A DNA stretch of 59,937 bases, taken from positions 1 to 59,937 of IMG/VR virus record IMGVR_UViG_3300009512_000015, one strand, 5' to 3'. Each line of letters opens with the position of its first letter. The first letter of the stretch is position 1. The notes under the pieces are model-generated. The model was given only the letters and a program-made list of their open reading frames with translations. It made no database searches and was not told the origin of the DNA. This document shows, piece by piece, positions 14,415-47,730 of this stretch. A program made the translations under genes and the position numbers. The DNA is from a virus (Duplodnaviria; Caudoviricetes).

Positions 14415-16673
14415 CTAAGAAAAGCAGTACTCAGATTCAAGTACCAGATTTATGTCAAGAGTGCCAAACTCAACTTGAGAAATATCAGCACCAATATGTT
14501 TAAAGAGTGTTGTTATAGGGTTTACGTTATAAAGTTCAACAAAAGTTTCTCTAGTGTTTTTAAACAATTCAGGCATGTCGCAAAGAAGTGTACCAAAAGA
14601 ATCATGGACTGTTGTAACAGCGCATTCAGATCTACAAACAATTAAAACAAGGTGTGCTGCATCTAAACTGTGAGTTACATTTGGCGCAGCTCCTTGCGAC
14701 TGCTTTCCTTTAGATGGCTTAACATCCTCAAAAAAGCAAATTAATAGTTGTAAAGCATTATCATAATAACCTGTAGACTTTAACTCACCTTCTTTAGGCC
14801 CGTATTGTACCCATATTTTTTTAACTTTACCTTCAGTATAATGTTGCACTACTGGAAAGTTTGTTATCGGGACTGGCCAGTTAAGAAAAAGACCATTGTT
14901 TTCAGCTGTCTTTCCTGCTTTTTCAAACAAAGTTAAAAGCTGAGAAGGTCGCCTTAAAGCATTTCGACATTCTTCATAAACACAACGACCCATATATGCA
15001 CCCCATTTATGCTCCATATAGAACAACAAGTTTATTTTATGCTTTCGAGCGTCGTCTATTTGTTGCTGACCTAGTCCAAAAGGCGTTCCACCGTAAGGCA
15101 AGGTCATTACATTTCTTTTTACTATTTTTCTTTGACTTTTATTATCAACAATTCTTGCCCAAAAGACAGGAGCTTTAAACGCTTCAAGTTCGGCTAAGTC
15201 TTCTCTAACACAACGAAGTAGTTGAAGCAGCTCATCTTTAATAACACCTGGCTCTTGCGCTTGTATTTGTTTCCTTAAATCAATTGTTGCATCAATCCAT
15301 TCTTCTAACGCAATTCTTTCTTCAGGGCTTAGACTTGCTATGTCTTCGTTAATATTTGACCATACACGTTTTGCAATAAAACCGTAAAGATCTCCAGGCA
15401 TTACGCTAGGCGTTAGATTGACATGAGGTGCTGTTATTTCATCTCTTGTTAAAGCAGCTAAGTGCTGAGAACCGTTATTAGTACCATCAATATATGCTTC
15501 TAAATGTGAAACATAGCCGTAGTTTTGAAACGGATCTCCTTTAGCGTTTACATGCTTTTCCATTTGAAGTTGCCACATTCTTAGCTTATAAAGCTCTAAG
15601 CAAGCTGCAATAAATTGCCAAGGTTTGTCTGCACGCATCCAACCAATAGACTCTTTTGGGTTTGCCGCATACTCTAAAAAAGTATCTTCATTAGCTAACG
15701 CCCATTCAAATCTTTCTAACAAAGGAATTTTGTCAGACTTTGCTCCTTCAGGGTGGCCGCACTCTCCGCCCCAGTTTGAAGCAATTGAAATAAGAAGCCA
15801 TTTAAAACCTTCAGAACCGATAGGTTTTGCATCAGAACGTAATAACATGCCTTTTGCAATATCAGAACCTTGCTCATGGAGATAAGCGGTTGCTGCGTAT
15901 TTTCGGCCTCTAAAATCATAATAATATAGATGATAAAAAGTGTCATTAAGGAACTTTGTTGCAATACTTAAAATTGCTTTAGCTTCTCTTCCTTTTGTAG
16001 CCCTTGCTTCTCTTGAATGCGCATTCCAAATATCTTGAAACGCTTCTTGCTTTGTTTTTAAAGCCCATTGCTCTAGTGAATAAACGCGCTTGTTTACACG
16101 CCACCCTACTTTTTGAGCGCGATTGACGCATTCAAAAACTAAAGGATGCGTTTCAGCAGTAAGGCTTTCTAACACCATTTTATTTTTAGTTTTTACAAGG
16201 CTTGTGCCATTTGCATGTTCACTGCTTACCCAATCAGGGTATGGCGTTTTTGATGGAAGCTTTTCAATAGATGTTGCAGGGAGGCTTTGCCAAAGCTCAA
16301 CCAGAACATCATCTTTTATTAACCTGACAATATAAGCATTATGCCCGTTCCTCCCTTGACCTAAAATGACTTCTAAAATACCTAGTTTATCAAATGAATA
16401 TAAATAAAATGCACCGATTTTAGCGGCAAGTGCCGAGTTAACAGGTAGATTCCATCTTGAAATCATTGTATGCCCTAGCGCTGAAATAAGCTCAGCAAGA
16501 TATATTGTGTTTTTGTTATAGCCCTTTTTAGGCCTTGTGTATAAGTACATTATACTAATAAGAACATCTATGTATGCTGCGACTGGATAGCGTTTTATTA
16601 CGCTAACTGGGTTTTGTGGAGCCAGCTCAGTTGACATTCGTTGGTTAAGCGACTTAATAAGAGTAGCTCTCAT
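14415..16673 (-). CDS. T7-type single-subunit DNA-directed RNA polymerase (stand-alone)
   Basis: YDFRGRKY, motif A IDGTNNGSQHL, motif B RKIVKRNVMTLPYG, APNVTHSLDAAHL, motif C VHDSFG, C-terminal YCFS (T7 ends in FAFA). Confidence 0.96.
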   Translation of the reverse strand: MRATLIKSLNQRMSTELAPQNPVSVIKRYPVAAYIDVLISIMYLYTRPKKGYNKNTIYLAELISALGHTMISRWNLPVNSALAAKIGAFYLYSFDKLGILEVILGQGRNGHNAYIVRLIKDDVLVELWQSLPATSIEKLPSKTPYPDWVSSEHANGTSLVKTKNKMVLESLTAETHPLVFECVNRAQKVGWRVNKRVYSLEQWALKTKQEAFQDIWNAHSREARATKGREAKAILSIATKFLNDTFYHLYYYDFRGRKYAATAYLHEQGSDIAKGMLLRSDAKPIGSEGFKWLLISIASNWGGECGHPEGAKSDKIPLLERFEWALANEDTFLEYAANPKESIGWMRADKPWQFIAACLELYKLRMWQLQMEKHVNAKGDPFQNYGYVSHLEAYIDGTNNGSQHLAALTRDEITAPHVNLTPSVMPGDLYGFIAKRVWSNINEDIASLSPEERIALEEWIDATIDLRKQIQAQEPGVIKDELLQLLRCVREDLAELEAFKAPVFWARIVDNKSQRKIVKRNVMTLPYGGTPFGLGQQQIDDARKHKINLLFYMEHKWGAYMGRCVYEECRNALRRPSQLLTLFEKAGKTAENNGLFLNWPVPITNFPVVQHYTEGKVKKIWVQYGPKEGELKSTGYYDNALQLLICFFEDVKPSKGKQSQGAAPNVTHSLDAAHLVLIVCRSECAVTTVHDSFGTLLCDMPELFKNTRETFVELYNVNPITTLFKHIGADISQVEFGTLDINLVLESEYCFS

Positions 16674-16681
16674 TTAGATCC

Positions 16682-16846
16682 TCATAAGGTTATAATTAAA
16701 ATAACTATTTGTATTAATAAGATAAACATTCCAACTGTAAGAATGGGGACAATAATAAAACTAAATAAAATATAAAGTGAGTCTTCCATAACACATATTA
16801 GTTCTTCATAAACATTTTCCCAAATATCTTTAAGCCATCTCTTCAT
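16682..16846 (-). CDS. 54-aa membrane protein
   Basis: Manual translation MKRWLKDIWENVYEELICVMEDSLYILFSFIIVPILTVGMFILLIQIVILIITL*; GAGGGG RBS. Confidence 0.55.
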   Translation of the reverse strand: MKRWLKDIWENVYEELICVMEDSLYILFSFIIVPILTVGMFILLIQIVILIITL

Positions 16847-16904
16847 TAAACCCCTCGCTTGTAAAAAGCTAAGAGGAAAAAAAAAATAGTTTAAAGTAAA
16901 TTGC

Positions 16905-16932
16905 GCCTCCTTTCCCCGAAGGGAAAGAAGAC
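16905..16932 (-). terminator. cUUCGg-capped hairpin
   Basis: Minus strand GTCTTCTTTCCC-TTCG-GGGAAAGGAGGC, with a T10 run about 20 nt downstream. Confidence 0.65.
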
Positions 16933-16944
16933 AATAGTTGTTGC

Positions 16945-17175
16945 TTAGCTTTGTTTTAGTTTAGATTGGATTCTTTCCAATGCTTTGTTTACCGAATCAA
17001 TTTCAACGCTTATACGTTGAGTTTCATCGTTAATCTTTTTACAGTTGTTTCGGTGATCTCTTAAAAGCTGCCTTCGCTCATAAACGCTTTTAATTGCAAC
17101 TCCTGTTAAAAGACCACCTTTGTTAAACTGTCTCCAAAAGCCTTCAGAAGACTTTTTGCCTGTCTTTTTAGGCAT
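16945..17175 (-). CDS. hypothetical basic coiled-coil protein
   Basis: ORF track; operon packing. Confidence 0.55.
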   Translation of the reverse strand: MPKKTGKKSSEGFWRQFNKGGLLTGVAIKSVYERRQLLRDHRNNCKKINDETQRISVEIDSVNKALERIQSKLKQS

Positions 17176-17180
17176 AAGTT

Positions 17181-17552
17181 TTAATCAAAATGACTAACAC
17201 ACGTATAGCGTGTTTTGTCACAACCACCAGGTGAATTAAAAAGCTTTTCACCATTTCTGACAAAGTAGCTTTCGTTTTGTGTGTTGCTTGGCGTTGTTAT
17301 TGTAGCACAAGCGCCTGTTCCATAGGTTGTACGATTCCCTTGACGGTTAGACGGACAAACCATTTTCTTTCTTGAAACTTTAACAACAGTAGTACAAGGC
17401 TTGTTACTGCCGTATATTGCTGCATTGCTACAAGTAACAGTTCCAACTTCTTGTGCAAAAGCTGTGTTTGTAACAAACAAGGCACAAACAACACATATAA
17501 AAGCTACTAGTGGATTTTTATTTTTAATATTTAAATTTTTTGAAATTTTCAT
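17181..17552 (-). CDS. putative exported Cys-rich protein
   Basis: Basic N-terminus, hydrophobic core, AFA-Q signal-peptidase-like site, six Cys in the mature part. Confidence 0.6.
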   Translation of the reverse strand: MKISKNLNIKNKNPLVAFICVVCALFVTNTAFAQEVGTVTCSNAAIYGSNKPCTTVVKVSRKKMVCPSNRQGNRTTYGTGACATITTPSNTQNESYFVRNGEKLFNSPGGCDKTRYTCVSHFD

Positions 17553-18001
17553 GTAATACGCTCCTCAATATTAATATCACAATGCCAAAGGCGTTCAGCA
17601 TCAGCTTTTATGTCTTCAATTTTTTGCCAACGATTTTTCATTCTATTAAGTACAGCTTCTGGGACATTATGCAAGCTACCAAAGTTTCCGGTAGCTTCTA
17701 TAATCTCAATTTCAGGGATATTAAGGTTTGAAACCATAGCAAAATAAGGCTTCATTTCCCAAAAAGCTGCAAACGTGTTTGAAACAATAACTGACTTTCC
17801 ATTTGATAGCGCTATACCACACATTGTTCTACACCACTGATGTGCGTGCCCTATAAGTTTTTTATCAAAATTATAACAACCCTCTGAATTTAGAAAATAC
17901 ATATCTGCTTCAAATCGCTCTGTGTTGCTGCCTCCAAGAGCACGACTCAAAGTAGACTTTCCAGAACCCGGAAGACCTCTTATTAAAGTTAACTTAAGCA
18001 T
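17549..18001 (-). CDS. P-loop kinase (AAA_33/polynucleotide-kinase-like)
   Basis: IRGLPGSGKST, EADMYF, AHQWC, VIVSNTF, HNVP. Confidence 0.85.
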   Translation of the reverse strand: MLKLTLIRGLPGSGKSTLSRALGGSNTERFEADMYFLNSEGCYNFDKKLIGHAHQWCRTMCGIALSNGKSVIVSNTFAAFWEMKPYFAMVSNLNIPEIEIIEATGNFGSLHNVPEAVLNRMKNRWQKIEDIKADAERLWHCDINIEERIT

Positions 18002-18040
18002 AATAATTCCTTTTACTACAACATTATAATAAAAGGTTTA

Positions 18041-18562
18041 TTAGCTGTTAGTTTTATAGAGATTATTATAAAAAGTCAAATGGTCGTATGAACTATAAAT
18101 CATTTTATCGAGCTTAGTTACATTTAATTTTAAGCAAGCTTCATAAGTTGAAGTGTTTTCTTTTTTAAAAAATTCACTTTCACAATGAGCTATGATACGG
18201 CGTAAAGACTCTTTATATTGAGATTTTACAATTGTTCCAAACCCTGTTTCCATTAAAGTGTCAAGCTCTTTTTCTTCTTTCTCTAACTGAGTTACTAGCT
18301 TGTTTGCGTTTCTTTTATTAACAAACTCTTCTAGATGATTAACACCAGCTGTTTTAACGTACTTAATATTTGTTAAAACTGAATTGCTTTTGCTGGCTGC
18401 TGTTGATTTTACATCCTCTGCAGTACCCATTGCTTGATCTAAATATGTCTGAAAAGACACGCCATCGAGATCAAATGTTTGCGGCGCTTTACTACAACCG
18501 CTTGAAACACCGGCAAGTACTATTACAAATGAAACACTTATTACTTTTAAAATCATGCGCAT
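18041..18562 (-). CDS. putative lipoprotein
   Basis: Basic N-terminus, hydrophobic stretch, lipobox-like SSG-C (Cys23). Confidence 0.55.
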   Translation of the reverse strand: MRMILKVISVSFVIVLAGVSSGCSKAPQTFDLDGVSFQTYLDQAMGTAEDVKSTAASKSNSVLTNIKYVKTAGVNHLEEFVNKRNANKLVTQLEKEEKELDTLMETGFGTIVKSQYKESLRRIIAHCESEFFKKENTSTYEACLKLNVTKLDKMIYSSYDHLTFYNNLYKTNS

Positions 18563-18613
18563 GATTTCTTCCTTTTCTCATTTAATATTCTGCGAAACCG
18601 TCACAGTAACGGG

Positions 18614-18790
18614 TTACTTTTTAGTTAAATTTTTAAGATCTAACTGCTTTGAATTAACTTCTTGTTTTGAAATAACTCTAGCTTTTAAGGCTTTTTTATC
18701 TTTTAATTTTTTATTTTCTTTTTTAAAACGTTTACGATTCTTTCCTCTTTTTGAGCTTTTCCAGCATCCGCCTGTTTCATCGGGGGGCAT
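18614..18790 (-). CDS. 58-aa very basic protein
   Basis: Manual translation MPPDETGGCWKSSKRGKNRKRFKKENKKLKDKKALKARVISKQEVNSKQLDLKNLTKK*; fills an otherwise empty gap. Confidence 0.5.
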   Translation of the reverse strand: MPPDETGGCWKSSKRGKNRKRFKKENKKLKDKKALKARVISKQEVNSKQLDLKNLTKK

Positions 18791-19052
18791 TGTTTAGACC
18801 CAAGCTGCTAAACTCTTCTAACACTTCTAATAAAATAAACAAAGAAAACACACCAAGGCCAATAAAAATATAAGTATTAAACGACCAATTGGCAATTGAA
18901 GCTGTAAGTACTTTGGCGATTATTGCACAAGCAGCAACCACAAAAGGCATAATCAAAAGTCTCATTAAGAGATAATGATAAACAGATTGACGCGTTCGTC
19001 TAAATCTTGCAAAAAACTTTGAGCTATTGTTTTTACTGTTTACAAGTTTCAT
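18777..19052 (-). CDS. two-TM membrane protein
   Basis: Two hydrophobic segments; GGGGT RBS. Confidence 0.6.
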   Translation of the reverse strand: MKLVNSKNNSSKFFARFRRTRQSVYHYLLMRLLIMPFVVAACAIIAKVLTASIANWSFNTYIFIGLGVFSLFILLEVLEEFSSLGLNNAPR

Positions 19053-19087
19053 TTTTAATACCCCGTTAGTTACTGTTATTTTCTATA

Positions 19088-19282
19088 TCATATAAGATAC
19101 TGCTTTTTCCGTGTTTGTTTTTTAATAGTTACTATACTATAGACGTCTCTATTGATCTTGCAAGCGTTAATTGCTTTTTTATTTGAATGTGCAAGTGTCC
19201 AAAATGTCTTGATAAAGAGATCATCTGGGCCTGATACGTATTGTACACCATACCAAGAGCTTTTCTCTATAGATTCAAGCAT
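19088..19282 (-). CDS. hypothetical protein
   Basis: ORF track; overlaps the upstream stop. Confidence 0.55.
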   Translation of the reverse strand: MLESIEKSSWYGVQYVSGPDDLFIKTFWTLAHSNKKAINACKINRDVYSIVTIKKQTRKKQYLI

Positions 19283-19460
19283 ATAAACCTGTAATTCTTT
19301 TAGTTATAACTTTTGAATTACAAGGGTCACAGCATTGTCCTCTCGCTATTGGCTCTGCATTGTTTCCTTTTATCCAGAGACCGATTGCATTTTCTTTAAT
19401 ACTCTGCTTGCAAATAACACAAGTATCGTCGGCACTAGTGCTTTCTATTAACGGCTTCAT
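19275..19460 (-). CDS. small Zn-finger-like protein
   Basis: CVIC...CCDPCN; AAGGTCTAT leader. Confidence 0.65.
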   Translation of the reverse strand: MKPLIESTSADDTCVICKQSIKENAIGLWIKGNNAEPIARGQCCDPCNSKVITKRITGLYA

Positions 19461-19475
19461 TTTTATAGACCTTTT

Positions 19476-19604
19476 TTATTTAAGAGAACCTAGGCTTTCT
19501 GTTATTGGTGATCTTAGCCTGTGATTGTTTGGTTTCCTAGTTGGCAAACTGCCTTGAATTTTCTTTCTATATCCAAACGGGTTTACTTTAGCAGGGTGTC
19601 GCAT
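19476..19604 (-). CDS. 42-aa basic peptide
   Basis: Manual translation MRHPAKVNPFGYRKKIQGSLPTRKPNNHRLRSPITESLGSLK*; AAGGA upstream. Confidence 0.45.
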   Translation of the reverse strand: MRHPAKVNPFGYRKKIQGSLPTRKPNNHRLRSPITESLGSLK

Positions 19605-19606
19605 TT

Positions 19607-19888
19607 TTATTTCCTTTTAATTTTTGAAGGGTTAAGTTCTTTCATCTCTAAATTTAAAATTTGATCTTCTGCTCTTAAAGAATAAATAAGAAGCCCTATT
19701 AAAAAGGTGCCACCCGTTATTGCAAGGCTAGCATAAACAAGAAGACCAATACTTTCGGTAGCTTCGTTAGTTGAAAAACTTATCACTAACAGTCCTGTTA
19801 TAAAGGCGGCCAAGCCAAGTCCGAAGCTAAGAGCAAGTGAGCTAAGAAGCGTTTTTGCAATAGCTATTAATATTCTTTTAGTTTTCAT
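19607..19888 (-). CDS. two-TM membrane protein
   Basis: Two long hydrophobic helices; AAGGTCTAT leader. Confidence 0.65.
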   Translation of the reverse strand: MKTKRILIAIAKTLLSSLALSFGLGLAAFITGLLVISFSTNEATESIGLLVYASLAITGGTFLIGLLIYSLRAEDQILNLEMKELNPSKIKRK

Positions 19889-19924
19889 TTAATAGACCTT
19901 TTCTAAAAGTTAATTTTGTTAGTT

Positions 19925-20335
19925 AATGGGTTTGGTTGCACGATTCTCCTCCACTGTTGCCGAAATCTGCATCGTGACTAACTCTTCATGGGGCTTTACG
20001 GATGAAGGCCGCACTAGTTGTATGCTCAACTAGTAGCTTCTGTGTATTACGCGCCCAAGCAACCCATTTCAGGGACACAGAATATTCAGGGTGTGCACGG
20101 AATGCGAAGAATTCTCAACAGCATCTCGTGACTGACTCTCTTCATGGCACCCTTACGAGTGGTATGCTTTGAGTTGCATATAAGACAATGAGAGATCCCT
20201 ATTGGGTATGCTTGCTGGTTAGGCGCACGTTCCTCCCCACCACAGGGAGTACATCTATTCACTGTCGAATTTGGTTGCACGGTGTTCCCGTGACTAACTG
20301 GACAGGCTTGTACCCGCTGTCCTTCGAGTGTTGTT
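19925..20335 (-). ncRNA. candidate structured ncRNA with three AGU(U/C)AGUCACG...CGUGCA units
   Basis: GC-rich intergenic island; three copies of a bipartite motif, each flanking a different stem-loop; additional hairpins and long-range complementarity. No RNA family recognised. Confidence 0.55.
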
Positions 20336-20339
20336 CGGT

Positions 20340-20570
20340 TTAATTTTCCCCTGTTTCACAACGCCAACAATCACAATCATACTCACTTATTCTAATCCCA
20401 TGTTTACAGAATCCAGGGCGATCCATTTTTCCTTTAAGAATCTTGTTTTCGCAGATTTCACACATAACAGCTTCACCATCAAGGCCAGTGTTACCACAAG
20501 CATAATCAAGTGTTTTATAGTCCCAGCCGCTAGGCACAGTATATGCAACGCGATTTTTACAATTACTCAT
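20340..20570 (-). CDS. small Cys-rich protein
   Basis: CG...CEIC...CKH...CDCWRC; AAGGTCTAT leader. Confidence 0.65.
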   Translation of the reverse strand: MSNCKNRVAYTVPSGWDYKTLDYACGNTGLDGEAVMCEICENKILKGKMDRPGFCKHGIRISEYDCDCWRCETGEN

Positions 20571-20581
20571 TACTATAGACC

Positions 20582-21022
20582 TTATGAAGAAAAAGAAGAA
20601 GAAAGTTTTCGGTACACATGCTTATCTCTGTCTTCACTTTTTATTCGAACTTGCAAAGCTTTGATAGCCTTTTCAGTAGAAGCTAAAACAATCTTTGACT
20701 CTGCGGTATCAGCTTTTTGAATTTTTTTACATTTATTTTTAAGTGTTGATATTTCTTTATGTATTTCTTTTTTTCTTTGCTTACCTTTACACAAAAGACC
20801 TACTGCTTCAAAAGACACAGACATATTTGGGAAAGCTTTTATGTGTTTACTATTTTGAGCCCATTTGCAATTAGGGTGTACAAGACCTTTGGCAGCGCGA
20901 GCTAGCATTTCATTGTGTTTTTTAAAACCTTGTATGTCTTTGCTATTAAACGTAGAATCTGTAATAGCTACGTGAAGTGTATTGTTTGTTTTTAAAGCAC
21001 TCTCTTTCTTTTTATTTTTCAT
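20582..21022 (-). CDS. hypothetical basic protein
   Basis: ORF track; ATGA coupling with the upstream gene. Confidence 0.6.
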   Translation of the reverse strand: MKNKKKESALKTNNTLHVAITDSTFNSKDIQGFKKHNEMLARAAKGLVHPNCKWAQNSKHIKAFPNMSVSFEAVGLLCKGKQRKKEIHKEISTLKNKCKKIQKADTAESKIVLASTEKAIKALQVRIKSEDRDKHVYRKLSSSFSS

Positions 21023-21222
21023 AAATTAGCTCTTTTTTCTAAATTGTTTATCTCTACTTTTTTACGAATTTCCCAAGCTTTCTGTTCTTCTTCAAACACA
21101 AAAGGACAATTGATTTGATTAAATTTTCTGATTAAACCAGCGCTAGCTTTTGAGTTTATGAAAGTTGTTTTCTTAAGCCTGCCTAATGCACGAAGCTGCC
21201 TTTTTCTTTTTTTAATTTCCAT
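21019..21222 (-). CDS. hypothetical basic protein
   Basis: AAGGA RBS. Confidence 0.6.
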   Translation of the reverse strand: MEIKKRKRQLRALGRLKKTTFINSKASAGLIRKFNQINCPFVFEEEQKAWEIRKKVEINNLEKRANL

Positions 21223-21265
21223 AAGAAATCCTTTATTTTTTAATTTTAGCTATGTCTCAATTTTT

Positions 21266-21283
21266 AAGGGCCCGAAGGCCCTT
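21266..21283 (-). terminator. cUUCGg-capped hairpin
   Basis: Minus strand AAGGGCC-TTCG-GGCCCTT. Confidence 0.65.
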
Positions 21284-21289
21284 TCACTA

Positions 21290-21493
21290 TTATGCTGCTT
21301 TGCTTTCATCCCAGATAACATAATAATCAAGACGATCTTCCATCTCAAAAAGTTTTGCTTTCATTACGTTTAAGCGGTATCGTAAATCATCTTTTTCTGC
21401 GCACTCAAACATTCGCTGAAGACGCTTAACGCCTAGTTCAAAGTGCAAAGTCATTGCTACAATATTATTCTCCAGCCTTTCTTCATTACTCAT
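21290..21493 (-). CDS. hypothetical protein, first gene of the small-gene block
   Basis: GAAGGT RBS. Confidence 0.6.
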   Translation of the reverse strand: MSNEERLENNIVAMTLHFELGVKRLQRMFECAEKDDLRYRLNVMKAKLFEMEDRLDYYVIWDESKAA

Positions 21494-21577
21494 AATAAAG
21501 TACCTTCTCAGAATTAATAAAACGATATCTCTTTTTGGATATCATATAAGATACCCTATTTCCCGCGTTTTAAAACG

Positions 21578-22437: not shown

Positions 22438-22668
22438 AGTATATCCTCTTTCGGGTAGGTCTACCACCTCTACCCTCTACCTCTTTGAATAACTGCTAGT
22501 AACCTTAGTGCGTTCTGGGGTGTCTTTTAGTTACTCAGGAGGGTTAGGTATATAAAGGGGGCCATAAATGGGTTAATGTAACGGGAGCCGTTAACAAGTT
22601 TGGCTTATTTGTTTATTTTAAAAATATTAAAAACAATCGCAATAGCGTAGCTGCCTGTGAGCCGCAAA

Positions 22669-23241: not shown

Positions 23242-23312
23242 TTATTTCTCCTTTTAAAAACAACTAGACTGCTAGCTTGCAAAGCTGTTTAGCTTTAATC
23301 TTTTGATTGCTA

Positions 23313-30578: not shown

Positions 30579-30592
30579 TTAGCCTCCTAGGT

Positions 30593-30612
30593 AAAAAAGG
30601 GCCGAAGCCCTT
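30593..30612 (-). terminator. intrinsic terminator after tape measure
   Basis: Minus strand AAGGGC-TTCG-GCCCTT continuing into a T6 run. Confidence 0.8.
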
Positions 30613-30617
30613 ACCGA

Positions 30618-37819: not shown

Positions 37820-37836
37820 GGTTCCTTTGTATTTTT

Positions 37837-37865
37837 AAGCCCCAGAGTTTTAAGGCTCTGAGGCT
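37837..37865 (-). terminator. hairpin upstream of tape measure
   Basis: Minus strand AGCCTCAGAGCC-TTAA-AACTCTGGGGCTT, imperfect stem. Confidence 0.45.
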
Positions 37866-39177: not shown

Positions 39178-39195
39178 ATTTCCTGCTGATTTTAA

Positions 39196-39217
39196 AAGGG
39201 AGCCCGAAGGCCCCCTT
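39196..39217 (-). terminator. intrinsic terminator after tail tube gene
   Basis: Minus strand AAGGGGGCC-TTCG-GGCTCCCTT followed by TT. Confidence 0.75.
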
Positions 39218-39240
39218 GTTTCAAAACACTAAACTAACAA

Positions 39241-39840: not shown

Positions 39841-39841
39841 A

Positions 39842-40601: not shown

Positions 40602-41089
40602 TAGCCAGTTCTCCACCATCTATTTGTGGAACTAATAGCGTCAGGGTCTAAAAGAGGTTTAATAAGAGCTGATGCAATACTAGATATACTGCTTGCGGAT
40701 CTAATACCTTTAAGCTCTATTGGGCCTATTTTAAGACTCTCTACTTCAGAGACATCATCAAGCACACCGTCATTGTTTAATAAATGATAGGCTATTTCAA
40801 AACACGCTTCAGTAATTCTAGAAGGTACGACTGTTGAAGAAAGTGCAACAATAATACCTAGTTTAGGTTCATAATAACTAAGGGTGCGTGGAAAAGCTAA
40901 ACTTTGTGCAGCCGATGGTGCAAAACCACCCCAAGACTTAGCGTCAAGAATTTGGGTGGCTGTTACCAATGCAGATGCCTTTGTTAAATCGTTAGCTAGA
41001 GTCCAAGCGGCAACATCTAGGCGCGTATTAAAATATTCATCTGCTTCTGTAACAGTTGCATACGAATTAACACCTTTTGAAAGTGCCAT
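40601..41089 (-). CDS. head-tail adaptor (DnaT_2-like family)
   Basis: NSYATVTEADEYF..R...ALVTAT..LD...QSLAFPR...VPSRITEACFEIA; AAGGAGG RBS. Confidence 0.8.
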   Translation of the reverse strand: MALSKGVNSYATVTEADEYFNTRLDVAAWTLANDLTKASALVTATQILDAKSWGGFAPSAAQSLAFPRTLSYYEPKLGIIVALSSTVVPSRITEACFEIAYHLLNNDGVLDDVSEVESLKIGPIELKGIRSASSISSIASALIKPLLDPDAISSTNRWWRTG

Positions 41090-41103
41090 ACGCCCTCCTT
41101 AGT

Positions 41104-42285: not shown

Positions 42286-42296
42286 TATTACTTCCT

Positions 42297-43001
42297 TTAG
42301 TTTCTATGAAGGGATTTTCCCTTTCGTTGAATTTTGCCAGTATCAATATCGTTAAGAACTTTAGAAAGAGGTTGTTGAAGTGCGTTTAGTGTATTGCTAA
42401 CACTACTACCAGGGGCAGGATTGCCGCCTCCAGAAGATTTCTTAGCTTTCAACAAAAAGTCGTTTTCAGGGTCTATAATAAAAGCCTGAACCGCTTCTTC
42501 AATACTCTTGCCTGTTCTTTTATCTACCCAATCCCCTGTTTCGTTACGTATAAGTGTATCTGAAATTATACGTTCTGCGTTATTTGCTGCCCTTGCGTTA
42601 GCAAACTCAACTTCACTAAAAGCATGTCCAATATCCTTGTCACGCGTCAACTCAATGTTTCGCTTTTCAAGAATTTCTGATCTAGCTCTAGATTGTGCGA
42701 GTTCTTGCTCGGTAGCTTCTTGCAGTTTACCTGAATCCTTTAGTTGCTGTATCTCAGCGTCTTTAAGCTTTTGCTCAGTTTCTTGTACTTTGGCAAGAGC
42801 TTCGTCACGCTGTTTAGCCATTCTGTCCATGTTGTCTTTCATAGGCAAAAGAGCTTCTTGTACCGCTTCATCTAAATCAGCCTTAAGAATAGATGGTTGT
42901 TCAGAGTCACCGGTTAGATCAGCAGGGGGATTTATATCACTTGGCTTAAGTTCGCCAGCAGGTGTATCATCAAGGTTTGGGTTTATATCTTCGTCTGACA
43001 T
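42297..43001 (-). CDS. Capsid scaffolding protein
   Basis: Acidic N-terminus, long coiled coil, SSGGG near the C-terminus; start reassigned to ATG 43001 after AAGGA. Confidence 0.8.
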   Translation of the reverse strand: MSDEDINPNLDDTPAGELKPSDINPPADLTGDSEQPSILKADLDEAVQEALLPMKDNMDRMAKQRDEALAKVQETEQKLKDAEIQQLKDSGKLQEATEQELAQSRARSEILEKRNIELTRDKDIGHAFSEVEFANARAANNAERIISDTLIRNETGDWVDKRTGKSIEEAVQAFIIDPENDFLLKAKKSSGGGNPAPGSSVSNTLNALQQPLSKVLNDIDTGKIQRKGKSLHRN

Positions 43002-43110
43002 TTTGATTTTCCTTTGAGTACAACTCAATTAATTAAAGACACAGCCTTTTTGTATGTTTCACATGCGTCACTCTCTAATTTCGCGCGTGGGTTAAGAAAA
43101 CGGGGAGGTT

Positions 43111-46100
43111 CTAACCAACCCCATACCAAGCTTTATCTGACTTAAAATCGTCAAATACTTCTTCTAATACAGCTTCTTTATCTAGTATATCTTCTTGTTT
43201 TAAAAGCTTACCCCCAACTCTGGATTTGCCAGCTACAGGGATAAGACCTATTTCTATTGCTTCTTCAAGGTATTGATCATACAGTCTTTTAGGTAAACCT
43301 CGAGAACGCATTTCATTTAAAACAGCTTTTATTACATTTGTATTAAGACTCTTTGCAAAAATTTTACGTAAGGCGTTTCTGCCTATTTGCATATCTGCAA
43401 TATTAGTGAAAAAAGCGTCATGAATAGTTGAGGTTGGAACTTTGTTTTCTTTACCCCATAAATGAAATTGTTTAACAAAAGTAGCATCATTCGAGTGGTT
43501 GCCGTTTACCGCAAAAGCTGTTCTAGCTTTAGTTGCGTCAGCAATATCGTTAATATTACCTGAGTCATTCCATAAAATTTCCCACCACGCTGCTTCGCTT
43601 TTTTGAGGGACTTGTAAAACATTGTTTACCCATTCACCATCTTTTGTTTTATAAATAAGCCTTTCTTCAAATCTTTGTGTAAAATTTTGTTCTATAATTT
43701 TTCCATCAAAATTCACCCAAGGCACATTAGTCCAGTCTTTTGGCAACGTATTTGCTGTAGACTCTAGTACTCTTATCTCTGTGCCTAATTTTGCTTGTTT
43801 AATAAAATCTATTTTGAAAATTCTACCACCAGTTCTTCTAGATAATGAATCTTCAACACCATAAATAATATCAGCAATACTGCTATCAGGGTTATAAAAA
43901 TTAAACTTTTTTAAAATCTCTTCAGTAATATCTGAGCCATCTTTAATGCCTAGCGCTCTTGAAATAATTTTAGGCAAAATAATCTTTTTCTGTCGCTTGC
44001 CTAACACAATTGTTTTACCAACTTGTTTCCAGTCCCAAGAAGAGCTAGAAGGCTTTGAATTTATTAAAAAATCTTCGGCCAGTCTACCAAAAAACTTAGT
44101 AAAATCTTTAAGAATAGGAGTTCTACTAGCTAAATTTTCGCTCATAATTTGAGCAATCAACCGAAAGTCTTGCGGTGTAACAACTCTATCATAAGCTTTT
44201 GAAAGATTTTCTACAAGTTCTTTAGTAGCGTTATCTAAGAAAAATAATTGTTCTAAAATATCATCACCAGGGTCTATCCCTTTATTAAAAACATCTTTAA
44301 CATTTTTACGCAAAGCTCGAAGTTCATCAGCTGTGTCTTGATCAAATTTATCATAACGAGCAATTCTTGCTGATATTTCTGAAAGAACAACTTCTCTATC
44401 ACTAGCTCTTACAACAAGTGTATTAACATCTTTTCCTAAAACTTTTGATAACTTGCCTTCAACATTTAAGACACCTGTTCTTTCACCAGCGCCATAAAAT
44501 GTAACCATGTTTTGAGCCTTAGCTGCTTTTCTTAAATCTTTTTCAGTAAGACCTAGTTTTTCATTAAGCCTTTTAAACCGAGGGTCGCTGAAAGTTTCCG
44601 CAGCGATAACATCATACAATCGATTTTTTTGTTGAGTTGGTATGACATTCGATAGCTCTGCAAGCTGCTTGTTTTTTGTCGTGAGAGCAATGATTTGCGC
44701 TCCAGACGATGAAGCATCTTGCTCAAGGGCAAGCCTTGTCCTGTATTTTGATATTCGTTTAATATCGCTAAAGTCACCGCCGCTCCATTCATTGATCTTG
44801 GAGTATTCAATTGCAAAGCGGAAGAATTTACCCATCTCTTCCCCTTCGATTCTTGAGACAATAGGTGATTCGAGTATAGCCCGAATATCTCTGGGTTTAC
44901 CTCTGCGCATTTGATCCCCGATTTCAATAAGATCTTTACGCCATTTTTCTGATATTTTTTGTCGCCCTCTGATAGTGAGCGAATCAAGTCTTCCTTCAAA
45001 AAAGTCATCTAGTCCCCCAAGGAAAGATCCAACCTGGTCATTAAAGTTATTCCAACCACTGATACTTATTTCTTTTTCTGCAATTGTGTTTAGAAAGGGT
45101 CTGAACGTCTCACCTGATTGCGGCCCAATGAGACCTCTATCATAGATACGTGCACGATGGTCAACAAAGGGATTATTACTAAAGGCAAGATTTTCCTTAC
45201 GAAGGTATTCCATTGTTTTAAATCTTTCGTAAGCATCTCCTCTTGCGGCAATATATTTTTTATACTCATTGATTCCGTTATAAAACTTGGCTTTGCCTCG
45301 GTCGTCTTCAAAATAAAGCAATTTTTGAATAAAATCATAAAAGTCCTCATCTATTGTATATTGCGATTTAGCCGTCCAGTTTAAAGCGTCAGCCATATTA
45401 TCATCTATTAAGGAAGTAGGGAAGTTTCTAAAAGAGCTGGTAGAAGTTATTGGAATCCCTGTATCAAACTGTAAGCCTAGCTTGTTTTTAGCAAAATAAG
45501 TTTTAAAGCCAGCTCTGAAAATTAATCGATTTCTCTCTTCAGTTACAGGTATTCTTAAACCGAGGTCTACAGCTCTTGTTAATTTTGAATAAGCTTGTAT
45601 ACGTGGGTCTGTAATCCTAATATTGTAAGAAAGAGTGTCATAATACGGGCCAAAGTACTGTCCAGAGTTTCTGCTTTTCATTCTTCTCTTTTGAACACCA
45701 AAAGTTTCAATTTCATATAAATTGTTATTAGAATCTAAAAGCTTTACGCCAAGACGATACCATTGATTTCTTGACCCGTTCAAGTTAGCAGAGTTGTAAA
45801 GATCTCTGCCTAACTGTACAGCAAGCTGATCGCGATCTGGAGTATCAGCAAGTGCTAAACGTCTGGCAAATCTTTCATAAAACTGATCAAGTTCATTATC
45901 AGCTAACCTAGATCTTATTATCAAAGGTATATTAAAATCAAAAGTATCTCTAAGTTCTTTTGCTATCTTAGGAGCTGTTCGTACTTCCCAGTTATTCTTG
46001 CTAACTATATTATCAATAAACTTAGCTTGTAAATCTTTTAACATTACTGGGCCCAGTACAGGGTCAATATAATTACCATTAAGTAACTTTTTGAGAACAT

Positions 46101-47730
46101 CAGAATCTTTACGCAGTTGTGTTTCTAAAGAATCAGAAATATTCATAACATCAAATTTTATTTGAGATTGAGATACAGCTTTAAAATTAACCCAAGATTC
46201 ACCATCACGCCTATACCTTGTAAACAGGATTCGTAAGTTATCTACAACAACTGCTCGTTCATTAACACTCATTTTTTGTGCAAGCGAATTGCTAAACTTT
46301 TCAATGTATTCTTTATCTTTTAGTTTAAGTAAAACACTCTCTTTTACTAACCTTAGGTTGTTATTTAAAACAGAAGGATTTGGTGTAAACATTCTTGTGT
46401 CTTCATAACGGCTAGTTATTGGATTAAAAATTAATTGATCTTCTCTAGGCGGACTTTGCAATACGCGTCTTTTTTGAGAACGTTTAGTGCCTATTAAGTT
46501 GCCTCTATAGTTTGTTGTTGAAAGAATACCATCAAGATCTTTAGATTGTAAGAGATAATAATCTCTTAAGGTATTAGTCATTTTTACATCGTTAAGTAAA
46601 TCTTCAGGCCTTGCTGCACCAATTCTCATTGCATCTAGCTTTTCTTTAGCAACAGCAAATCTTTTTGTATCAGTGTTTGCTGTAAAAGAAGAATCAGTAA
46701 GCTTCCTTAGCTGGTTAATGCCGATATTAGCCCCACCAACTCCTTTAAATTCTTTAGCAGATAGCTGTCCTTTTCTAAATAATTCTACTTTTTGATATTC
46801 TCCCAAATGTTTTAACTGCACATCAGGAGACTGCCTTGTTAGCCATATATTATACGGCTCTTTAAGTGCTGTCTTACCATCATAAAAGTTTTGTTCTTTT
46901 CGGCTCAAGCTTCCTAAGTTTCTTTTTCTGATTTGACTGACGTTATCGAGAGTGGCAAGGTCGGCCCAGGCTTTGAAAACAGGTGTAGTTGTGCTACGGC
47001 AATTATAATGAGCGGGAGGAAGATGAATAACATCGTCAACATCATATATATTACCATCACGCCCTGAGCAGATAAATGAAGTTCTTGAATCAAGCACTGC
47101 AACATATTGCCATCCTTCTATTGCTTTTTCATTGGCTTTGTAAACTTCTCGGTCAGCCTGTGCAACAACAGATGTAACAGAAGTTGTCACTAAAGCGCGA
47201 GAATTGTTCCTTGTTATTTTTGTAGACTTTCTTACAATACGCGCTATTTGGTTAGTGCTCATACCTTCAGCAATTCCGCGTCTTATTACTTGCTCAATTC
47301 TGCGTGTTTCAGTCTTTGCAATACCTTTCCAAGCCGGTGAAAGTGCCTTGTCTCCGGCCAGAGTGCGCCGTAGTACAATTTCTTCGGCAACGCTAGGGTT
47401 CGCTTTAGCGGTTCGCCAAAGCTTCCCTATGGCACGCTCTGTTGTCACATAAGCATGGTTTAATTCGTCTGAAGCTAGGTCTAATAAAGATCTTTTTGAA
47501 ATCTTAAAAGCTTCAGCGGCTGTTTTATTAGACTCGCTGGCAAGTGCTGTACGTAATCTAAAAAAGCCTCTGTTTGAAAACTTTGCGTCTCTTATTAGTT
47601 TATCAACACGAACCCGATGACCATTAATCTCTAAATCAACTTTATTGCTTAAACGTTTTTCATAAAGTCTAATCATTGCAGACCTGTCTAGTTTTTCGTC
47701 AAAGACTTGTGTATTTACATTAATAGCCAT
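43111..47730 (-). CDS. MuF (SPP1 gp7-like) head protein fused to a T7-type RNA polymerase; putative virion RNAP
   Basis: N-terminal GWQYVAVLDSRTSFIC...DG...PPAHYNCRST (MuF). C-terminal FVDHRARIY, motif A EQDASSSGAQ, motif B RKAAKAQNMVTFYG, NGNHSNDA, motif C IHDAF. Confidence 0.92.
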   Translation of the reverse strand: MAINVNTQVFDEKLDRSAMIRLYEKRLSNKVDLEINGHRVRVDKLIRDAKFSNRGFFRLRTALASESNKTAAEAFKISKRSLLDLASDELNHAYVTTERAIGKLWRTAKANPSVAEEIVLRRTLAGDKALSPAWKGIAKTETRRIEQVIRRGIAEGMSTNQIARIVRKSTKITRNNSRALVTTSVTSVVAQADREVYKANEKAIEGWQYVAVLDSRTSFICSGRDGNIYDVDDVIHLPPAHYNCRSTTTPVFKAWADLATLDNVSQIRKRNLGSLSRKEQNFYDGKTALKEPYNIWLTRQSPDVQLKHLGEYQKVELFRKGQLSAKEFKGVGGANIGINQLRKLTDSSFTANTDTKRFAVAKEKLDAMRIGAARPEDLLNDVKMTNTLRDYYLLQSKDLDGILSTTNYRGNLIGTKRSQKRRVLQSPPREDQLIFNPITSRYEDTRMFTPNPSVLNNNLRLVKESVLLKLKDKEYIEKFSNSLAQKMSVNERAVVVDNLRILFTRYRRDGESWVNFKAVSQSQIKFDVMNISDSLETQLRKDSDVLKKLLNGNYIDPVLGPVMLKDLQAKFIDNIVSKNNWEVRTAPKIAKELRDTFDFNIPLIIRSRLADNELDQFYERFARRLALADTPDRDQLAVQLGRDLYNSANLNGSRNQWYRLGVKLLDSNNNLYEIETFGVQKRRMKSRNSGQYFGPYYDTLSYNIRITDPRIQAYSKLTRAVDLGLRIPVTEERNRLIFRAGFKTYFAKNKLGLQFDTGIPITSTSSFRNFPTSLIDDNMADALNWTAKSQYTIDEDFYDFIQKLLYFEDDRGKAKFYNGINEYKKYIAARGDAYERFKTMEYLRKENLAFSNNPFVDHRARIYDRGLIGPQSGETFRPFLNTIAEKEISISGWNNFNDQVGSFLGGLDDFFEGRLDSLTIRGRQKISEKWRKDLIEIGDQMRRGKPRDIRAILESPIVSRIEGEEMGKFFRFAIEYSKINEWSGGDFSDIKRISKYRTRLALEQDASSSGAQIIALTTKNKQLAELSNVIPTQQKNRLYDVIAAETFSDPRFKRLNEKLGLTEKDLRKAAKAQNMVTFYGAGERTGVLNVEGKLSKVLGKDVNTLVVRASDREVVLSEISARIARYDKFDQDTADELRALRKNVKDVFNKGIDPGDDILEQLFFLDNATKELVENLSKAYDRVVTPQDFRLIAQIMSENLASRTPILKDFTKFFGRLAEDFLINSKPSSSSWDWKQVGKTIVLGKRQKKIILPKIISRALGIKDGSDITEEILKKFNFYNPDSSIADIIYGVEDSLSRRTGGRIFKIDFIKQAKLGTEIRVLESTANTLPKDWTNVPWVNFDGKIIEQNFTQRFEERLIYKTKDGEWVNNVLQVPQKSEAAWWEILWNDSGNINDIADATKARTAFAVNGNHSNDATFVKQFHLWGKENKVPTSTIHDAFFTNIADMQIGRNALRKIFAKSLNTNVIKAVLNEMRSRGLPKRLYDQYLEEAIEIGLIPVAGKSRVGGKLLKQEDILDKEAVLEEVFDDFKSDKAWYGVG

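Follow-up and report, generated by a model that had tools for sequence, protein, structure and literature searches.

The window, that is, the whole stretch of 59,937 nucleotides analysed here, encodes two single-subunit RNA polymerases of the T7 type: a free enzyme (RNAP2) and an enzyme fused to a head-morphogenesis domain (MuF-RNAP). Features with their coordinates are listed in Table 1. The genes are co-oriented, as the sequence-only reading had held. Minus-strand ORFs of at least 150 aa (34 in number) together tile the window, and each of the five plus-strand ORFs of this size is nested in a longer minus-strand ORF. On the packaging side the gene order behind the first promoter-like site is 137-aa ORF, large terminase, fibre-like gene, portal, and MuF-RNAP; judged only by its position, the 137-aa ORF is a candidate small terminase. 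The tail genes are of siphovirus type. The replication block includes genes for a nucleotide kinase, family A DNA polymerase, exonuclease, primase/helicase, RNR, and ligase. Scans of the window returned 0 Rfam matches and 0 tRNA genes. The window has been cut from a longer genome: an RNA contig runs past its position 1, and contigs recorded with the fused protein reach 68409 bases. A circular join of the window ends is ruled out by the same RNA contig. The low end of the window carries a 44-nt inverted copy; it does not mark an assembly chimera, as the same junction is found in independent RNA contigs.

Table 1. Polymerase genes, promoter-like sites, and neighbouring features in the window.
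Feature	Position	Strand	Basis and context
Motif-1 site (CGTTTAATTAACCC)	59462..59475	-	exact copy, syntenic in relatives; precedes the stretch from the 137-aa ORF to MuF-RNAP
Portal gene	47742..49301	-	PHROG 145 portal (1e-49); DUF4055; directly upstream of MuF-RNAP
MuF-RNAP, 1539-aa fusion of a MuF/SPP1-gp7 head-morphogenesis domain and a divergent T7-type polymerase	43111..47730	-	Pfam, PHROG, hhalign
Motif-1 site	43089..43102	-	exact copy; 9 nt past the MuF-RNAP stop codon, before scaffold and major capsid genes
Motif-1 site	22570..22583	-	exact copy; before a 188-aa ORF and a 108-aa endolysin-like ORF
Class E site	21533..21570	-	core GTATCTTATATGA at 21542-21554; start of the small-gene block running to RNAP2
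Class E site, second	19079..19116	-	core at 19088-19100
Early small-ORF block	16682..21493	-	some 16 ORFs, 42-173 aa long, few with a known family; ORF list, PHROG
Terminator-like hairpin, UUCG loop	16904..16933	-	ten-T run about 18 nt further; just upstream of a 54-aa ORF and RNAP2
RNAP2, free 752-aa T7-type single-subunit RNA polymerase	14415..16673	-	Pfam, PHROG, and PDB matches; catalytic motifs
Motif-1 site	13553..13566	-	exact copy; before the replication block, downstream of RNAP2 and one 248-aa ORF

RNAP2 had been described as an intact T7-type enzyme, and the searches agree. It matches Pfam RNA_pol (PF00940; E 1.9e-61, 208.7 bits, cut-off 22), PHROG 414 "RNA polymerase" (1.5e-111), and T7 RNA polymerase chains in the PDB (1.1e-43). 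Its motif residues are DFRGR at 253-257, D396 in motif A, K519/Y527 in motif B, and H690-D691 in motif C. The gene lies between the small-ORF block (22467-16682) and the replication block, a position that had been likened, rightly, to that of T7 gene 1.

MuF-RNAP consists of a MuF/SPP1-gp7 region (residues 1-370), a region without assignment (~370-850), and a T7-type polymerase core (~855-1539). Phage_Mu_F (PF04233) matches residues 144-248 with 58.6 bits (cut-off 29.6), residues 1-370 match PHROG 241 (7.1e-55), and PF00940 is matched with 49.2 bits (cut-off 22). While phmmer returned 0 matches of MuF-RNAP against the PDB, a profile search did find matches there, with T7 RNA polymerase on top (7.1e-17). 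The fusion is aligned by hhalign to T7 RNA polymerase residues 397-877, including the specificity-loop region (probability 98.1, E 6.8e-14). A T7-like N-terminal promoter-binding domain was not found in MuF-RNAP by hhalign to T7 residues 1-390 (probability 0.19). RPOL_N has a Pfam match in neither polymerase; a language-model search (Atlas) gave a sub-threshold lead from MuF-RNAP to it (score 0.88).

Both enzymes retain intact catalytic motifs A, B, and C and look catalytically competent by sequence. The motif strings quoted earlier are present as given, DGTNNGSQH and KRNVMTLPYG in RNAP2, and DASSSGAQI and KAQNMVTFYG in the fusion. In MuF-RNAP the motif residues are DHRAR at 857-861, D1005 in motif A, K1071/Y1079 in motif B, and H1437-D1438 in motif C. 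Thirty enzymes were aligned (16 MuF-fused, seven RNAP2-type, five T7-like including Xp10, N4 gp16, and N4 mini-vRNAP). All 30 have the Asp of motifs A and C as well as the Lys and Tyr of motif B; the last Arg of the T/DxxGR motif, which reads DFRGR in RNAP2, is present in 29. DHRAR in MuF-RNAP has Ala for the usual Gly, and hhalign shows an insert of ~250 residues relative to T7 between motif B and the specificity-loop region. These two features would suit the idea that MuF-RNAP is a structural remnant, or an enzyme acting in the producing cell only, rather than a working infection transcriptase. We consider this improbable, given that the catalytic columns are invariant in 20 close and 30 diverse homologues of MuF-RNAP, down to 19% identity. 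Homing elements tend to insert into genes that are conserved and essential, and in EBPR siphovirus 1 the MuF-RNAP gene is split by an HNH endonuclease gene, which also speaks against a remnant. Small metatranscriptome RNA contigs that map to the MuF-RNAP gene weigh weakly in the same direction, as RNA libraries can hold DNA; the contigs are short, strand, starts, and level cannot be read from them, and the parts of the window that they leave uncovered carry no meaning.

The MuF-polymerase fusion is, as judged from homologous sequences, a stable and widespread architecture. PF04233 and PF00940 occur together in 112 of 120 homologues among the matches listed. MuF-RNAP matches form 145 clusters at 50% identity, the full-length ones being 1264-2073 aa long with the polymerase at the C-terminus. 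An alignment-based scan found relatives of MuF-RNAP encoded in 445 of 590 candidate stretches from IMG/VR, unlike a scan of viral contigs with the single protein, which gave no match. In the literature searched, no description of a MuF-fused T7-type polymerase was found.

A place immediately after the portal gene is canonical for a MuF gene. The portal gene ends 11 nt upstream of the MuF-RNAP gene, which shares a motif-1 unit with late genes. According to the available text of PMC5512222, MuF domains are components of the head that occur joined to effectors delivered into the host. Packaging of MuF-RNAP is fitted by its gene following the portal gene and lying in a late unit, and by MuF proteins elsewhere carrying delivered effectors. 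On MuF homology and gene position, MuF-RNAP is probably packaged in the virion and injected with the DNA.

The two polymerases are ancient paralogues by sequence, and the earlier judgement that no recent duplication had occurred is upheld. A direct BLASTP comparison aligns them over just 68 residues around motif C, at 28% identity (E 0.004). In a tree with the enzymes of T7, N4, and Xp10, the MuF-fused polymerases form their own clade, which holds all 16 such sequences (SH-aLRT 99), that of the cultured roseophage DSS3_VP1 nested inside. RNAP2 groups with the free polymerase of DSS3_VP1 (91) beside the T7-like enzymes, among which the Xp10 enzyme is also found; N4 mini-vRNAP is placed apart, on a long branch of its own. 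Both polymerase genes are found in 12 of 14 related virus records, the two without RNAP2 being fragments of 41-42% completeness. RNAP2 is present in all nine near-complete records of relatives, both polymerases occur in three of five records of a distant subfamily, and DSS3_VP1 has both in the same gene order.

Two promoter-like motifs are found on the coding strand. The first, motif 1 (CCCGTTAAATTAACCC), precedes the packaging, head/tail, lysis-like, and replication blocks. The window holds four exact copies where 0.02 are expected, all of them on the coding strand and intergenic. Among relatives, exact copies occur in 46 of 89 loci, every one on the coding strand, and variants of the motif begin with CCCGTT... 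or GCTGTT..., or read GGGTGCGTTAAAGAG and GGGGACGTTAAAGAA. A copy lies 0-12 nt past the MuF-RNAP stop codon in 34 of 48 relatives' loci. Syntenic copies number five in each of two related genomes (G001 and G003), and three further loci (L085, L086, and L088) have syntenic copies downstream of RNAP2. The core CGTTAAA is also found in a distant genome (G010) and in at least nine copies in DSS3_VP1, all outside the early block. By its distribution, motif 1 behaves like the promoter of a phage polymerase. It has AATTAACCCA in common with the printed promoter of a mined free T7-like enzyme (PMC13029058, Table 2). RNA contigs of two runs end at 43078, near the motif-1 site that follows the MuF-RNAP gene, which is a weak hint.

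The second motif, class E (GCGGAAAAAnnnGTATCTTATATGA), is confined to the small-gene block that ends with RNAP2. The window has two exact copies (0.11 expected at up to one mismatch). Class E is conserved in G001, G003, and a third relative (G004), and a similar form stands at the start of the early block of DSS3_VP1; no class E-like site was found in G010. The block itself is poor in recognisable functions. A PHROG scan of ten ORFs, eight of them in the early block, left seven without a match, and the sole match among those eight is ATPase/PNK-like. Folding of a GC-richer 197-nt spacer at 19889-20085 is unremarkable (z -0.52).

Class E may be a host sigma-70 promoter, because it has a two-block look: TTGCGG, resembling a -35 element, occurs in five of ten copies at 16-nt spacing from TATGAT, resembling a -10 element, and the DSS3_VP1 form has a perfect TATAAT. 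If so, the host RNA polymerase would read class E for the early proteins and RNAP2, and RNAP2 would read motif 1 elsewhere, as in T7. The packaged MuF-RNAP would be auxiliary, serving, for example, DNA pull-in, replication priming, or a non-essential first burst of transcription. In both T7 and the siphovirus Xp10, a T7-type enzyme works alongside transcription by the host. The MuF protein of Pelagibacter phage Kolga lacks a polymerase domain, yet this phage has an RNAP2-type enzyme, and such enzymes can therefore function without a fused partner; a scan of Kolga for motif 1 and class E gave chance-like matches only. Several features of class E fit less well with sigma-70. The 8-nt "spacer" GTATCTTA is identical in nine of ten copies across genomes whose proteins are ~55-60% identical, which is unusual for sigma-70 promoters. 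Both window copies have a poor -35-like block (CGCGGG and ACACGG). One copy in G001 ends 2 nt ahead of a Shine-Dalgarno site, which fits a transcription start at the end of the motif; a sigma-70 start would land inside or past that site. A generic sigma-70 scan does not discriminate between the readings: it was at chance level, with 29 sites (29.2 expected), and flagged no class E site. In 145 clusters a polymerase of 1150 residues with invariant catalytic residues has stayed joined to MuF, which points to an important role, not an auxiliary one. Early transcription by the host enzyme is, on these points, a serious but unlikely reading.

The layout of motif 1 and class E fits a relay of two polymerases in which RNAP2 reads motif 1. 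It had been proposed that the virion RNA polymerase transcribes ~21.5-14.4 kb and that RNAP2 then takes over. The genome is indeed partitioned by two motif classes as predicted, the early class beginning at 21554, near ~21.5 kb, and the other class heading the replication, head/tail, packaging, and lysis-like units. The enzymes assigned to the two classes are the less settled part of the proposal: we infer the pairing of motif with enzyme from the layout and by analogy. The terminator-like hairpin between the early ORFs and RNAP2 counts against the relay. An alignment of the regions upstream of RNAP2 yielded no common promoter; all that it brought out was a hairpin with a T-rich stretch behind it, in the window, in G001, and in another relative (G002).

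The relay would run as follows. MuF-RNAP would be made late, with the portal and head genes, and its MuF domain would bring it into the capsid; a few copies would enter the next cell along with the DNA. The injected enzyme would transcribe the small-gene block from the class E sites at 21.55 and 19.1 kb and, passing leaky hairpins, reach the RNAP2 gene. In the best-supported step, newly made RNAP2 would recognise the motif-1 promoters and transcribe four units: replication (13.56 kb), packaging/portal/MuF-RNAP (59.47 kb), scaffold/capsid/tail (43.10 kb), and the lysis-like pair (22.58 kb). RNAP2 would thus also make the next generation of the virion polymerase. We hold the chances of this relay, from MuF-RNAP on the early block to RNAP2 on the motif-1 units, to be evenly balanced.

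The assignment could also be reversed or shared, with MuF-RNAP reading motif 1, RNAP2 reading class E or both motifs, and the timing set by the order of DNA entry. The sequence makes no direct assignment of motif to enzyme, and the T7-like specificity-loop region is aligned in the fusion too. This arrangement is nevertheless very improbable. Motif 1 heads late structural units, whose expression would then have to begin straight away from the few molecules injected, while RNAP2 would mainly serve its own coding block. The motif-1-like sites of DSS3_VP1 all lie outside the early block, as class II/III promoters do in T7, and the sequence that motif 1 shares with the promoter of the mined enzyme is that of a free T7-like polymerase.

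The relay logic resembles that of N4, while the MuF fusion is a different packaging solution. In N4 the virion polymerase starts the early genes, and among these is the gene for a second, T7-like polymerase that serves the next class (PMC4496689, available text). The order in N4 is virion polymerase gp50, RNAPII (gp15/gp16), and then the host enzyme. Here too a virion polymerase, as proposed, would be followed by a second T7-like polymerase, and both enzymes belong to the T7-like superfamily. No similarity between MuF-RNAP and N4 vRNAP was detected by hhalign (probability 0.16), and N4 vRNAP chains are absent from the matches of MuF-RNAP in the PDB profile search (E up to 1). MuF-RNAP has 1539 aa and an attached MuF head domain, unlike N4 vRNAP with ~3500 aa and its own N- and C-terminal domains. 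The window phage further differs from N4 in its siphovirus-type tail genes, its single-chain RNAP2, and the presence of motif 1 before late genes as well, so that no host-dependent late class is evident; hairpin-type early promoters were not seen in the window. The comparison with T7 is closer on the side of RNAP2, which has all motifs and sits between early ORFs and replication genes. A short conserved promoter repeated before later gene blocks is likewise shared with T7 and Xp10. T7 is not known to have a second polymerase, and its early genes need the host enzyme; the second, head-fused polymerase sets the window phage apart from both T7 and Xp10.

The DNA of phage AR9 holds dU. Cascades in which a virion-linked polymerase is followed by a second phage polymerase are also found in Thermus phage P23-45, with a tape-measure-fused virion enzyme and then a non-virion enzyme (available text of 10.1101/2022.12.01.518664), and in the jumbo phages AR9/phiKZ, which have virion and non-virion enzymes, AR9 being a phage with two polymerases (available text of PMC5312081). 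As proposed here, the window phage would follow this scheme, including a gene for the second polymerase. Those polymerases are two-barrel, multisubunit-type enzymes, whereas both enzymes of the window are of the T7 single-subunit type, with MuF as the carrier in place of the tape measure of P23-45. Another relevant comparison is with MuF-fused effectors and polymorphic toxins, which join an N-terminal MuF domain to C-terminal enzymatic cargo and are thought to be delivered with phage DNA (available text of PMC5512222 and PMC11806420). Unlike these toxins, the cargo in the window phage is a full polymerase for the phage's own programme. In the available text of PMC5512222, N4-like RNA polymerase modules and MuF fusions appear separately and not joined.

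Close known counterparts are the Ruegeria phages DSS3_VP1 and DSS3_PM1 (Naomiviridae, dU-DNA), which share the order of portal, MuF fusion, scaffold, capsid, tail, small genes, RNA polymerase, kinase, and DNA polymerase. They hold the best annotated matches of both window polymerases (31.6% and 32.1% identity). A 1463-aa protein of DSS3_VP1, annotated only as "head morphogenesis", is a MuF and RNA_pol fusion, and promoter-like motifs of this phage are related to motif 1 and class E. The main text of the DSS3_VP1 paper contains neither "RNA polymerase", "RNAP", nor "MuF", nor mass spectrometry of virion proteins. By gene order and hallmark genes the window phage is Naomiviridae-like; its polymerases differ from those of the Ruegeria phages, being only ~32% identical, and it lacks a recognisable dCMP deaminase in the window. 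Pfam found no dU-pathway enzyme among ten proteins, eight from the replication end and two from the small-gene end. We take the source to be a marine siphovirus whose clade, large and uncultured, is related to the dU-DNA roseophages. The papers searched held no virion proteomics, transcription start mapping, biochemistry, or rifampicin data for this clade. Since both DSS3_VP1 and its host, Ruegeria pomeroyi DSS-3, exist as cultures, the relay is open to direct experiment.

Few phage groups (N4-like, crAss-like, jumbo phages, and P23-45) are known to carry an RNA polymerase in the virion, and each of them brought new enzyme biology. If the relay holds, a previously unrecognised kind of virion polymerase would be added to these, and the N4 strategy would have been invented independently, in a common group of marine phages with two orthogonal single-subunit polymerases and two short promoters. 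The host polymerase may then be dispensable for the whole gene programme of such a phage, an independence that we infer. In its widest form, the proposal is that a large, global marine siphovirus group including the cultured Naomiviridae is fully independent of host RNA polymerase, through a MuF-delivered T7-type enzyme with its own early promoters and a handover to RNAP2 at promoters with the CGTTAAA core; we put this forward as a tentative possibility that may well prove too broad. Here MuF, the same carrier that delivers phage toxins, is joined to a T7-type enzyme, and if injection is true, MuF would be a general protein-delivery module able to carry a polymerase of 130 kDa. In its widest form, the proposal would also give a reason for the ability of uracil-DNA phages to express their genes at once. 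Two such polymerases would be of interest for work on host-independent takeover, possibly linked to dU-DNA, and could yield new orthogonal transcription tools.

The genes of the window form one co-oriented segment (see the table). Minus-strand ORFs of at least 150 aa, 34 in all, tile it, and each of the five plus-strand ORFs of that size lies inside a longer minus-strand ORF, which bears out the sequence-only reading that all genes run the same way. The coordinates and motif strings it gave for the two polymerases are correct in the translations, and the map agrees with its placement of RNAP2, the free polymerase, between the small-gene block and the replication module. The cultured Ruegeria phage DSS3_VP1 has the same gene order. 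The window is a piece cut from a longer genome, since contigs with the fused protein reach 68409 bases and an RNA contig runs beyond position 1. Near-identical DNA comes from marine or seawater metagenome runs.

Features of the window, genes in the order met on the minus strand from 59.9 kb downward
Feature	Position	Strand	Remark
137-aa ORF		minus	small-terminase position; no family match
Large terminase		minus	after 137-aa ORF
1237-aa fibre-like protein, then several unknowns		minus	
Portal	47742-49301	minus	precedes MuF-RNAP
MuF-RNAP	43111-47730	minus	between portal and scaffold
Scaffold and major capsid, then head-tail genes		minus	after MuF-RNAP
2186-aa ORF		minus	taken as tape measure from size and place, as in DSS3_VP1; no family match
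1743-aa tail protein		minus	after 2186-aa ORF
188-aa ORF and 108-aa endolysin-like ORF		minus	after tail genes
Small ORFs (about 16)	21493-16682	minus	
RNAP2	14415-16673	minus	then 248-aa ORF
Replication block		minus	nucleotide kinase, family A DNA polymerase, MazG-like pyrophosphohydrolase, exonuclease, GIY-YIG endonuclease, primase/helicase, RNR, DUF4326, ligase
Nucleotide kinase	12216-12821		
MazG-like NTP pyrophosphohydrolase	9688-10182		
SegE-like GIY-YIG homing endonuclease	8352-8831		
Motif 1 (four exact copies)	13553-13566, 22570-22583, 43089-43102, 59462-59475	minus (coding)	all intergenic
Class E cores	21542-21554, 19088-19100		
AGTTAGTCACG	19973-19983, 20289-20299		two adjacent early-block spacers
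CTTCGG hairpins	~4448-4467, 21268-21281, 30597-30612, 39198-39215, 16904-16933		in spacers
44-nt inverted copy	23-66 (of 48931-48975)		22 nt exact
T runs of 60 and 25	59794-59937	coding	split by CCCTTTTTTGGTTGGTTGGAG

The homing endonuclease gene lies between the exonuclease and primase/helicase genes, and its syntenic gene in DSS3_VP1 is annotated as 'NAD synthetase' from the same PHROG. The MazG-like enzyme and the nucleotide kinase flank the DNA polymerase; in DSS3_VP1, which has dU-DNA, the kinase is likewise beside the DNA polymerase. No dCMP deaminase was recognised in the window. The inverted copy of a portal-gene stretch sits in an ORF running off the low end, and an assembly chimera is ruled out by the same junction in independent RNA contigs. 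The T runs lie upstream of the packaging unit. No such region exists in the relatives' genomes G001, G003, and G004, where the longest run is 13, and it could reflect either an error of assembly or a genuine terminal or low-complexity region.

Judged by their motifs, both polymerases look active. RNAP2 matches Pfam RNA_pol (E 1.9e-61), PHROG 414 (E 1.5e-111), and T7 RNA polymerase chains (E 1.1e-43), and in the T7 alignment DFRGR, DGTNNGSQH, RKIVKRNVMTLPYGG, and VHDSFGT are each paired with the corresponding T7 motif. MuF-RNAP, the fusion, has a Phage_Mu_F domain at residues 144-248 plus an RNA_pol match, and its translation contains DHRARIY, EQDASSSGAQI, KAQNMVTFYG, and IHDAFFT. A single alignment of 30 polymerases shows the motif A Asp, the Lys and Tyr of motif B, and the motif C Asp in every one, and the catalytic residues of these motifs are invariant across the fused family.

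The two enzymes are, by sequence comparison, old paralogues, in line with the sequence-only reading that they do not stem from a recent duplication. Direct BLASTP aligns them over just 68 residues around motif C (E 0.004). Built from 30 MuF-fused homologues with identity as low as 19%, a profile matches T7 RNAP residues 397-877 (probability 98.1, E 6.8e-14) and RNAP2 (95.6, E 1.1e-8), as against a probability of 0.16 for the N4 virion RNAP. Against PDB it finds T7 RNAP (7.1e-17), mitochondrial RNAPs (1.6e-10 to 4.1e-9), and N4 RNAPII gp16 (1.5e-5), with no N4 vRNAP chain at E <=1; by this test MuF-RNAP falls outside the N4 vRNAP family. Maximum likelihood (LG+G4, quick search, 644 columns) was used for a tree of 30 polymerase cores, rooted arbitrarily on the long branch of N4 mini-vRNAP. 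In it, all 16 MuF-fused enzymes form a separate clade (SH-aLRT 99) with the DSS3_VP1 fusion nested within. RNAP2 joins four relatives (100) and then the DSS3_VP1 free RNAP (91), and the T7/Xp10-type clade (99) adjoins these enzymes.

The fusion is a widespread and stable architecture that travels as a pair with RNAP2. Both Pfam domains are found in 112 of the best 120 homologues (415 at E <=1e-3 among 8000 scored candidates); the other eight, all shorter (879-1302 aa), have RNA_pol alone. HMMER matches the fusion to 145 clusters among 1.84 billion representatives, the full-length ones being 1264-2073 aa with the polymerase C-terminal, and relatives are encoded in 445 of 590 candidate IMG/VR stretches. 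RNAP2 homologues (50-62% identity) occur in 9/9 relatives' records that are each 97-100% complete, a count leaving out L043. In a distant subfamily, a free RNAP (706-737 aa) and a fused ORF (1375-1483 aa) occur together in three of five records, and the two with the fusion but no RNAP are fragments 41-42% complete. Among annotated phages, full-length matches are limited to the partial record of EBPR siphovirus 1 (56% identity) and DSS3_VP1/PM1 (31.6%), and the 1463-aa 'head morphogenesis' protein of DSS3_VP1 has MuF and RNA_pol in Pfam. Pelagibacter phage Kolga encodes an RNAP2-type enzyme, but its 633-aa MuF protein lacks a polymerase.

In place of the polymerase, the C-terminal region of the Kolga protein (L103 45152-47050) has sub-threshold zincin-type metallopeptidase matches; a passage in PMC5512222 places a peptidase domain of this sort with N4-like virion polymerases. 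The RNAP2 gene of G004 is split at motif B into two ORFs by a group I intron (L089 3044-3240; Rfam RF00028, 63.6 bits, E 1.1e-15), and the RNAP2 gene of G006, likewise in two pieces, has its break at this position. The MuF-RNAP gene of EBPR siphovirus 1 has an HNH endonuclease gene (gp48) inserted in it (L001 29081-29761).

Motif 1, CGTTNNNTTAACCC, has four exact copies in the window where 0.02 are expected. This short, strongly conserved, and orientation-specific motif heads the replication block and all late units, including MuF-RNAP's own. Relatives show the fuller consensus ACCCGTTAAATTAACCC. G001 and G003 have five syntenic copies each: ahead of the packaging genes, directly after MuF-RNAP, ahead of a two-gene unit, after RNAP2 and one or two ORFs, and beyond the equivalent of the window's low end. 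Exact copies occur in 46 of 89 loci, always on the coding strand, and in 34 of the 48 loci where the MuF-RNAP stop codon could be placed a copy lies 0-12 nt past it, often followed by AGGTGT. The CGTTAAA core recurs in DSS3_VP1 and the distant genome G010. The DSS3_VP1 version, ATAGGGTGCGTTAAAGAGGGG, has at least nine copies on the coding strand: five lie past the RNAP gene, three ahead of the portal, and one among head-tail genes, and the early block is free of them. Copies of the G010 version, TACCAGGGGACGTTAAAGAA, include one directly after the free RNAP.

RNAP2 would read motif 1 and so transcribe the replication and late units, including MuF-RNAP. This assignment draws on analogy with T7 class II/III promoters, on the positions of the DSS3_VP1 counterparts, all outside the early block, and on AATTAACCCA, which motif 1 shares with a promoter listed in Table 2 of PMC13029058 for a mined free T7-like enzyme. 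The reverse assignment of motifs to enzymes is highly improbable. Four metatranscriptome runs contain short contigs of 150-380 nt, most of them free of differences, that cover capsid/scaffold genes, portal, other late genes, and MuF-RNAP (43084-43485, 45638-45842, 46209-46478, 47568-47795); such contigs cannot reveal starts, and RNA libraries may contain DNA. Two of the runs, from different studies, have contigs ending at 43078, a point 11 nt downstream of motif 1, and a third run crosses the site; this hints weakly at a 5' end there.

A different motif, class E (GCGGAAAAAnnnGTATCTTATATGA), heads the block ending in RNAP2. The window has two copies (expected 0.11 at <=1 mismatch), G001, G003, and G004 have two to four each, mainly within the small-gene block, and the DSS3_VP1 early block opens with two copies of a similar GAAAACTAAGGCATCTATAATGA. 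Two ORFs separate the 22.58-kb copy of motif 1 in the window from the first class E site. One of these is endolysin-like, and therefore the early block proper is taken from 21.55 kb to RNAP2 and the 248-aa ORF at 13.66 kb.

Several spacers contain GC-rich hairpins with a CTTCGG (UUCG-type) loop. TTAAAAA or TTTTAAAA follows in three and TTTTTT in one, a long T run not being constant; they could be phage-polymerase terminators or RNA-stabilising ends. The 197-nt spacer 19889-20085, GC-richer than its surroundings, folds in no unusual way (z -0.52) and matches no Rfam family. A near-palindromic element, CCTGAACATGGCTCTAAACTGTTCA, which may be an operator or hairpin, occurs twice about 250 nt upstream of RNAP2 in L085 and L088 (G003, G005) and is absent from the window.

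The layout of both motif classes is what a polymerase relay predicts. A packaged MuF-RNAP, delivered into the host, would read class E and transcribe the early block including RNAP2. Packaging in the head is suggested by MuF homology, the gene's place after the portal, and passages in PMC5512222 and PMC11806420, which describe MuF proteins as parts of the head and consider delivery of their fused enzymatic domains into the host probable. That MuF-RNAP is inactive or non-injected is improbable. Host RNA polymerase may instead read class E in a T7-style scheme, which we consider rather unlikely. TTGCGG-16 nt-TATGAT resembles sigma-70 and the DSS3_VP1 form carries TATAAT, which count for the host enzyme. 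Two points count for the virion enzyme: 9/10 copies, from diverged genomes, have an identical 8-nt GTATCTTA, and one copy stops 2 nt short of a Shine-Dalgarno site. For the full relay we see an even chance.

N4 is nearest to this system in logic, T7 and Xp10 in the enzyme family of RNAP2, and P23-45 (a tape-measure fusion) and MuF-toxin fusions in carrier principle. In literature outside subscription journals, we found no description of a MuF-polymerase fusion or of two single-subunit polymerases in Naomiviridae-like phages; 'RNA polymerase', 'RNAP', and 'MuF' are absent from the main text of the DSS3_VP1 paper, as are the first two terms from a 2025 single-particle paper. The interest of the fusion is that it is widespread, conserved together with the promoters, and testable in a cultured phage-host pair.
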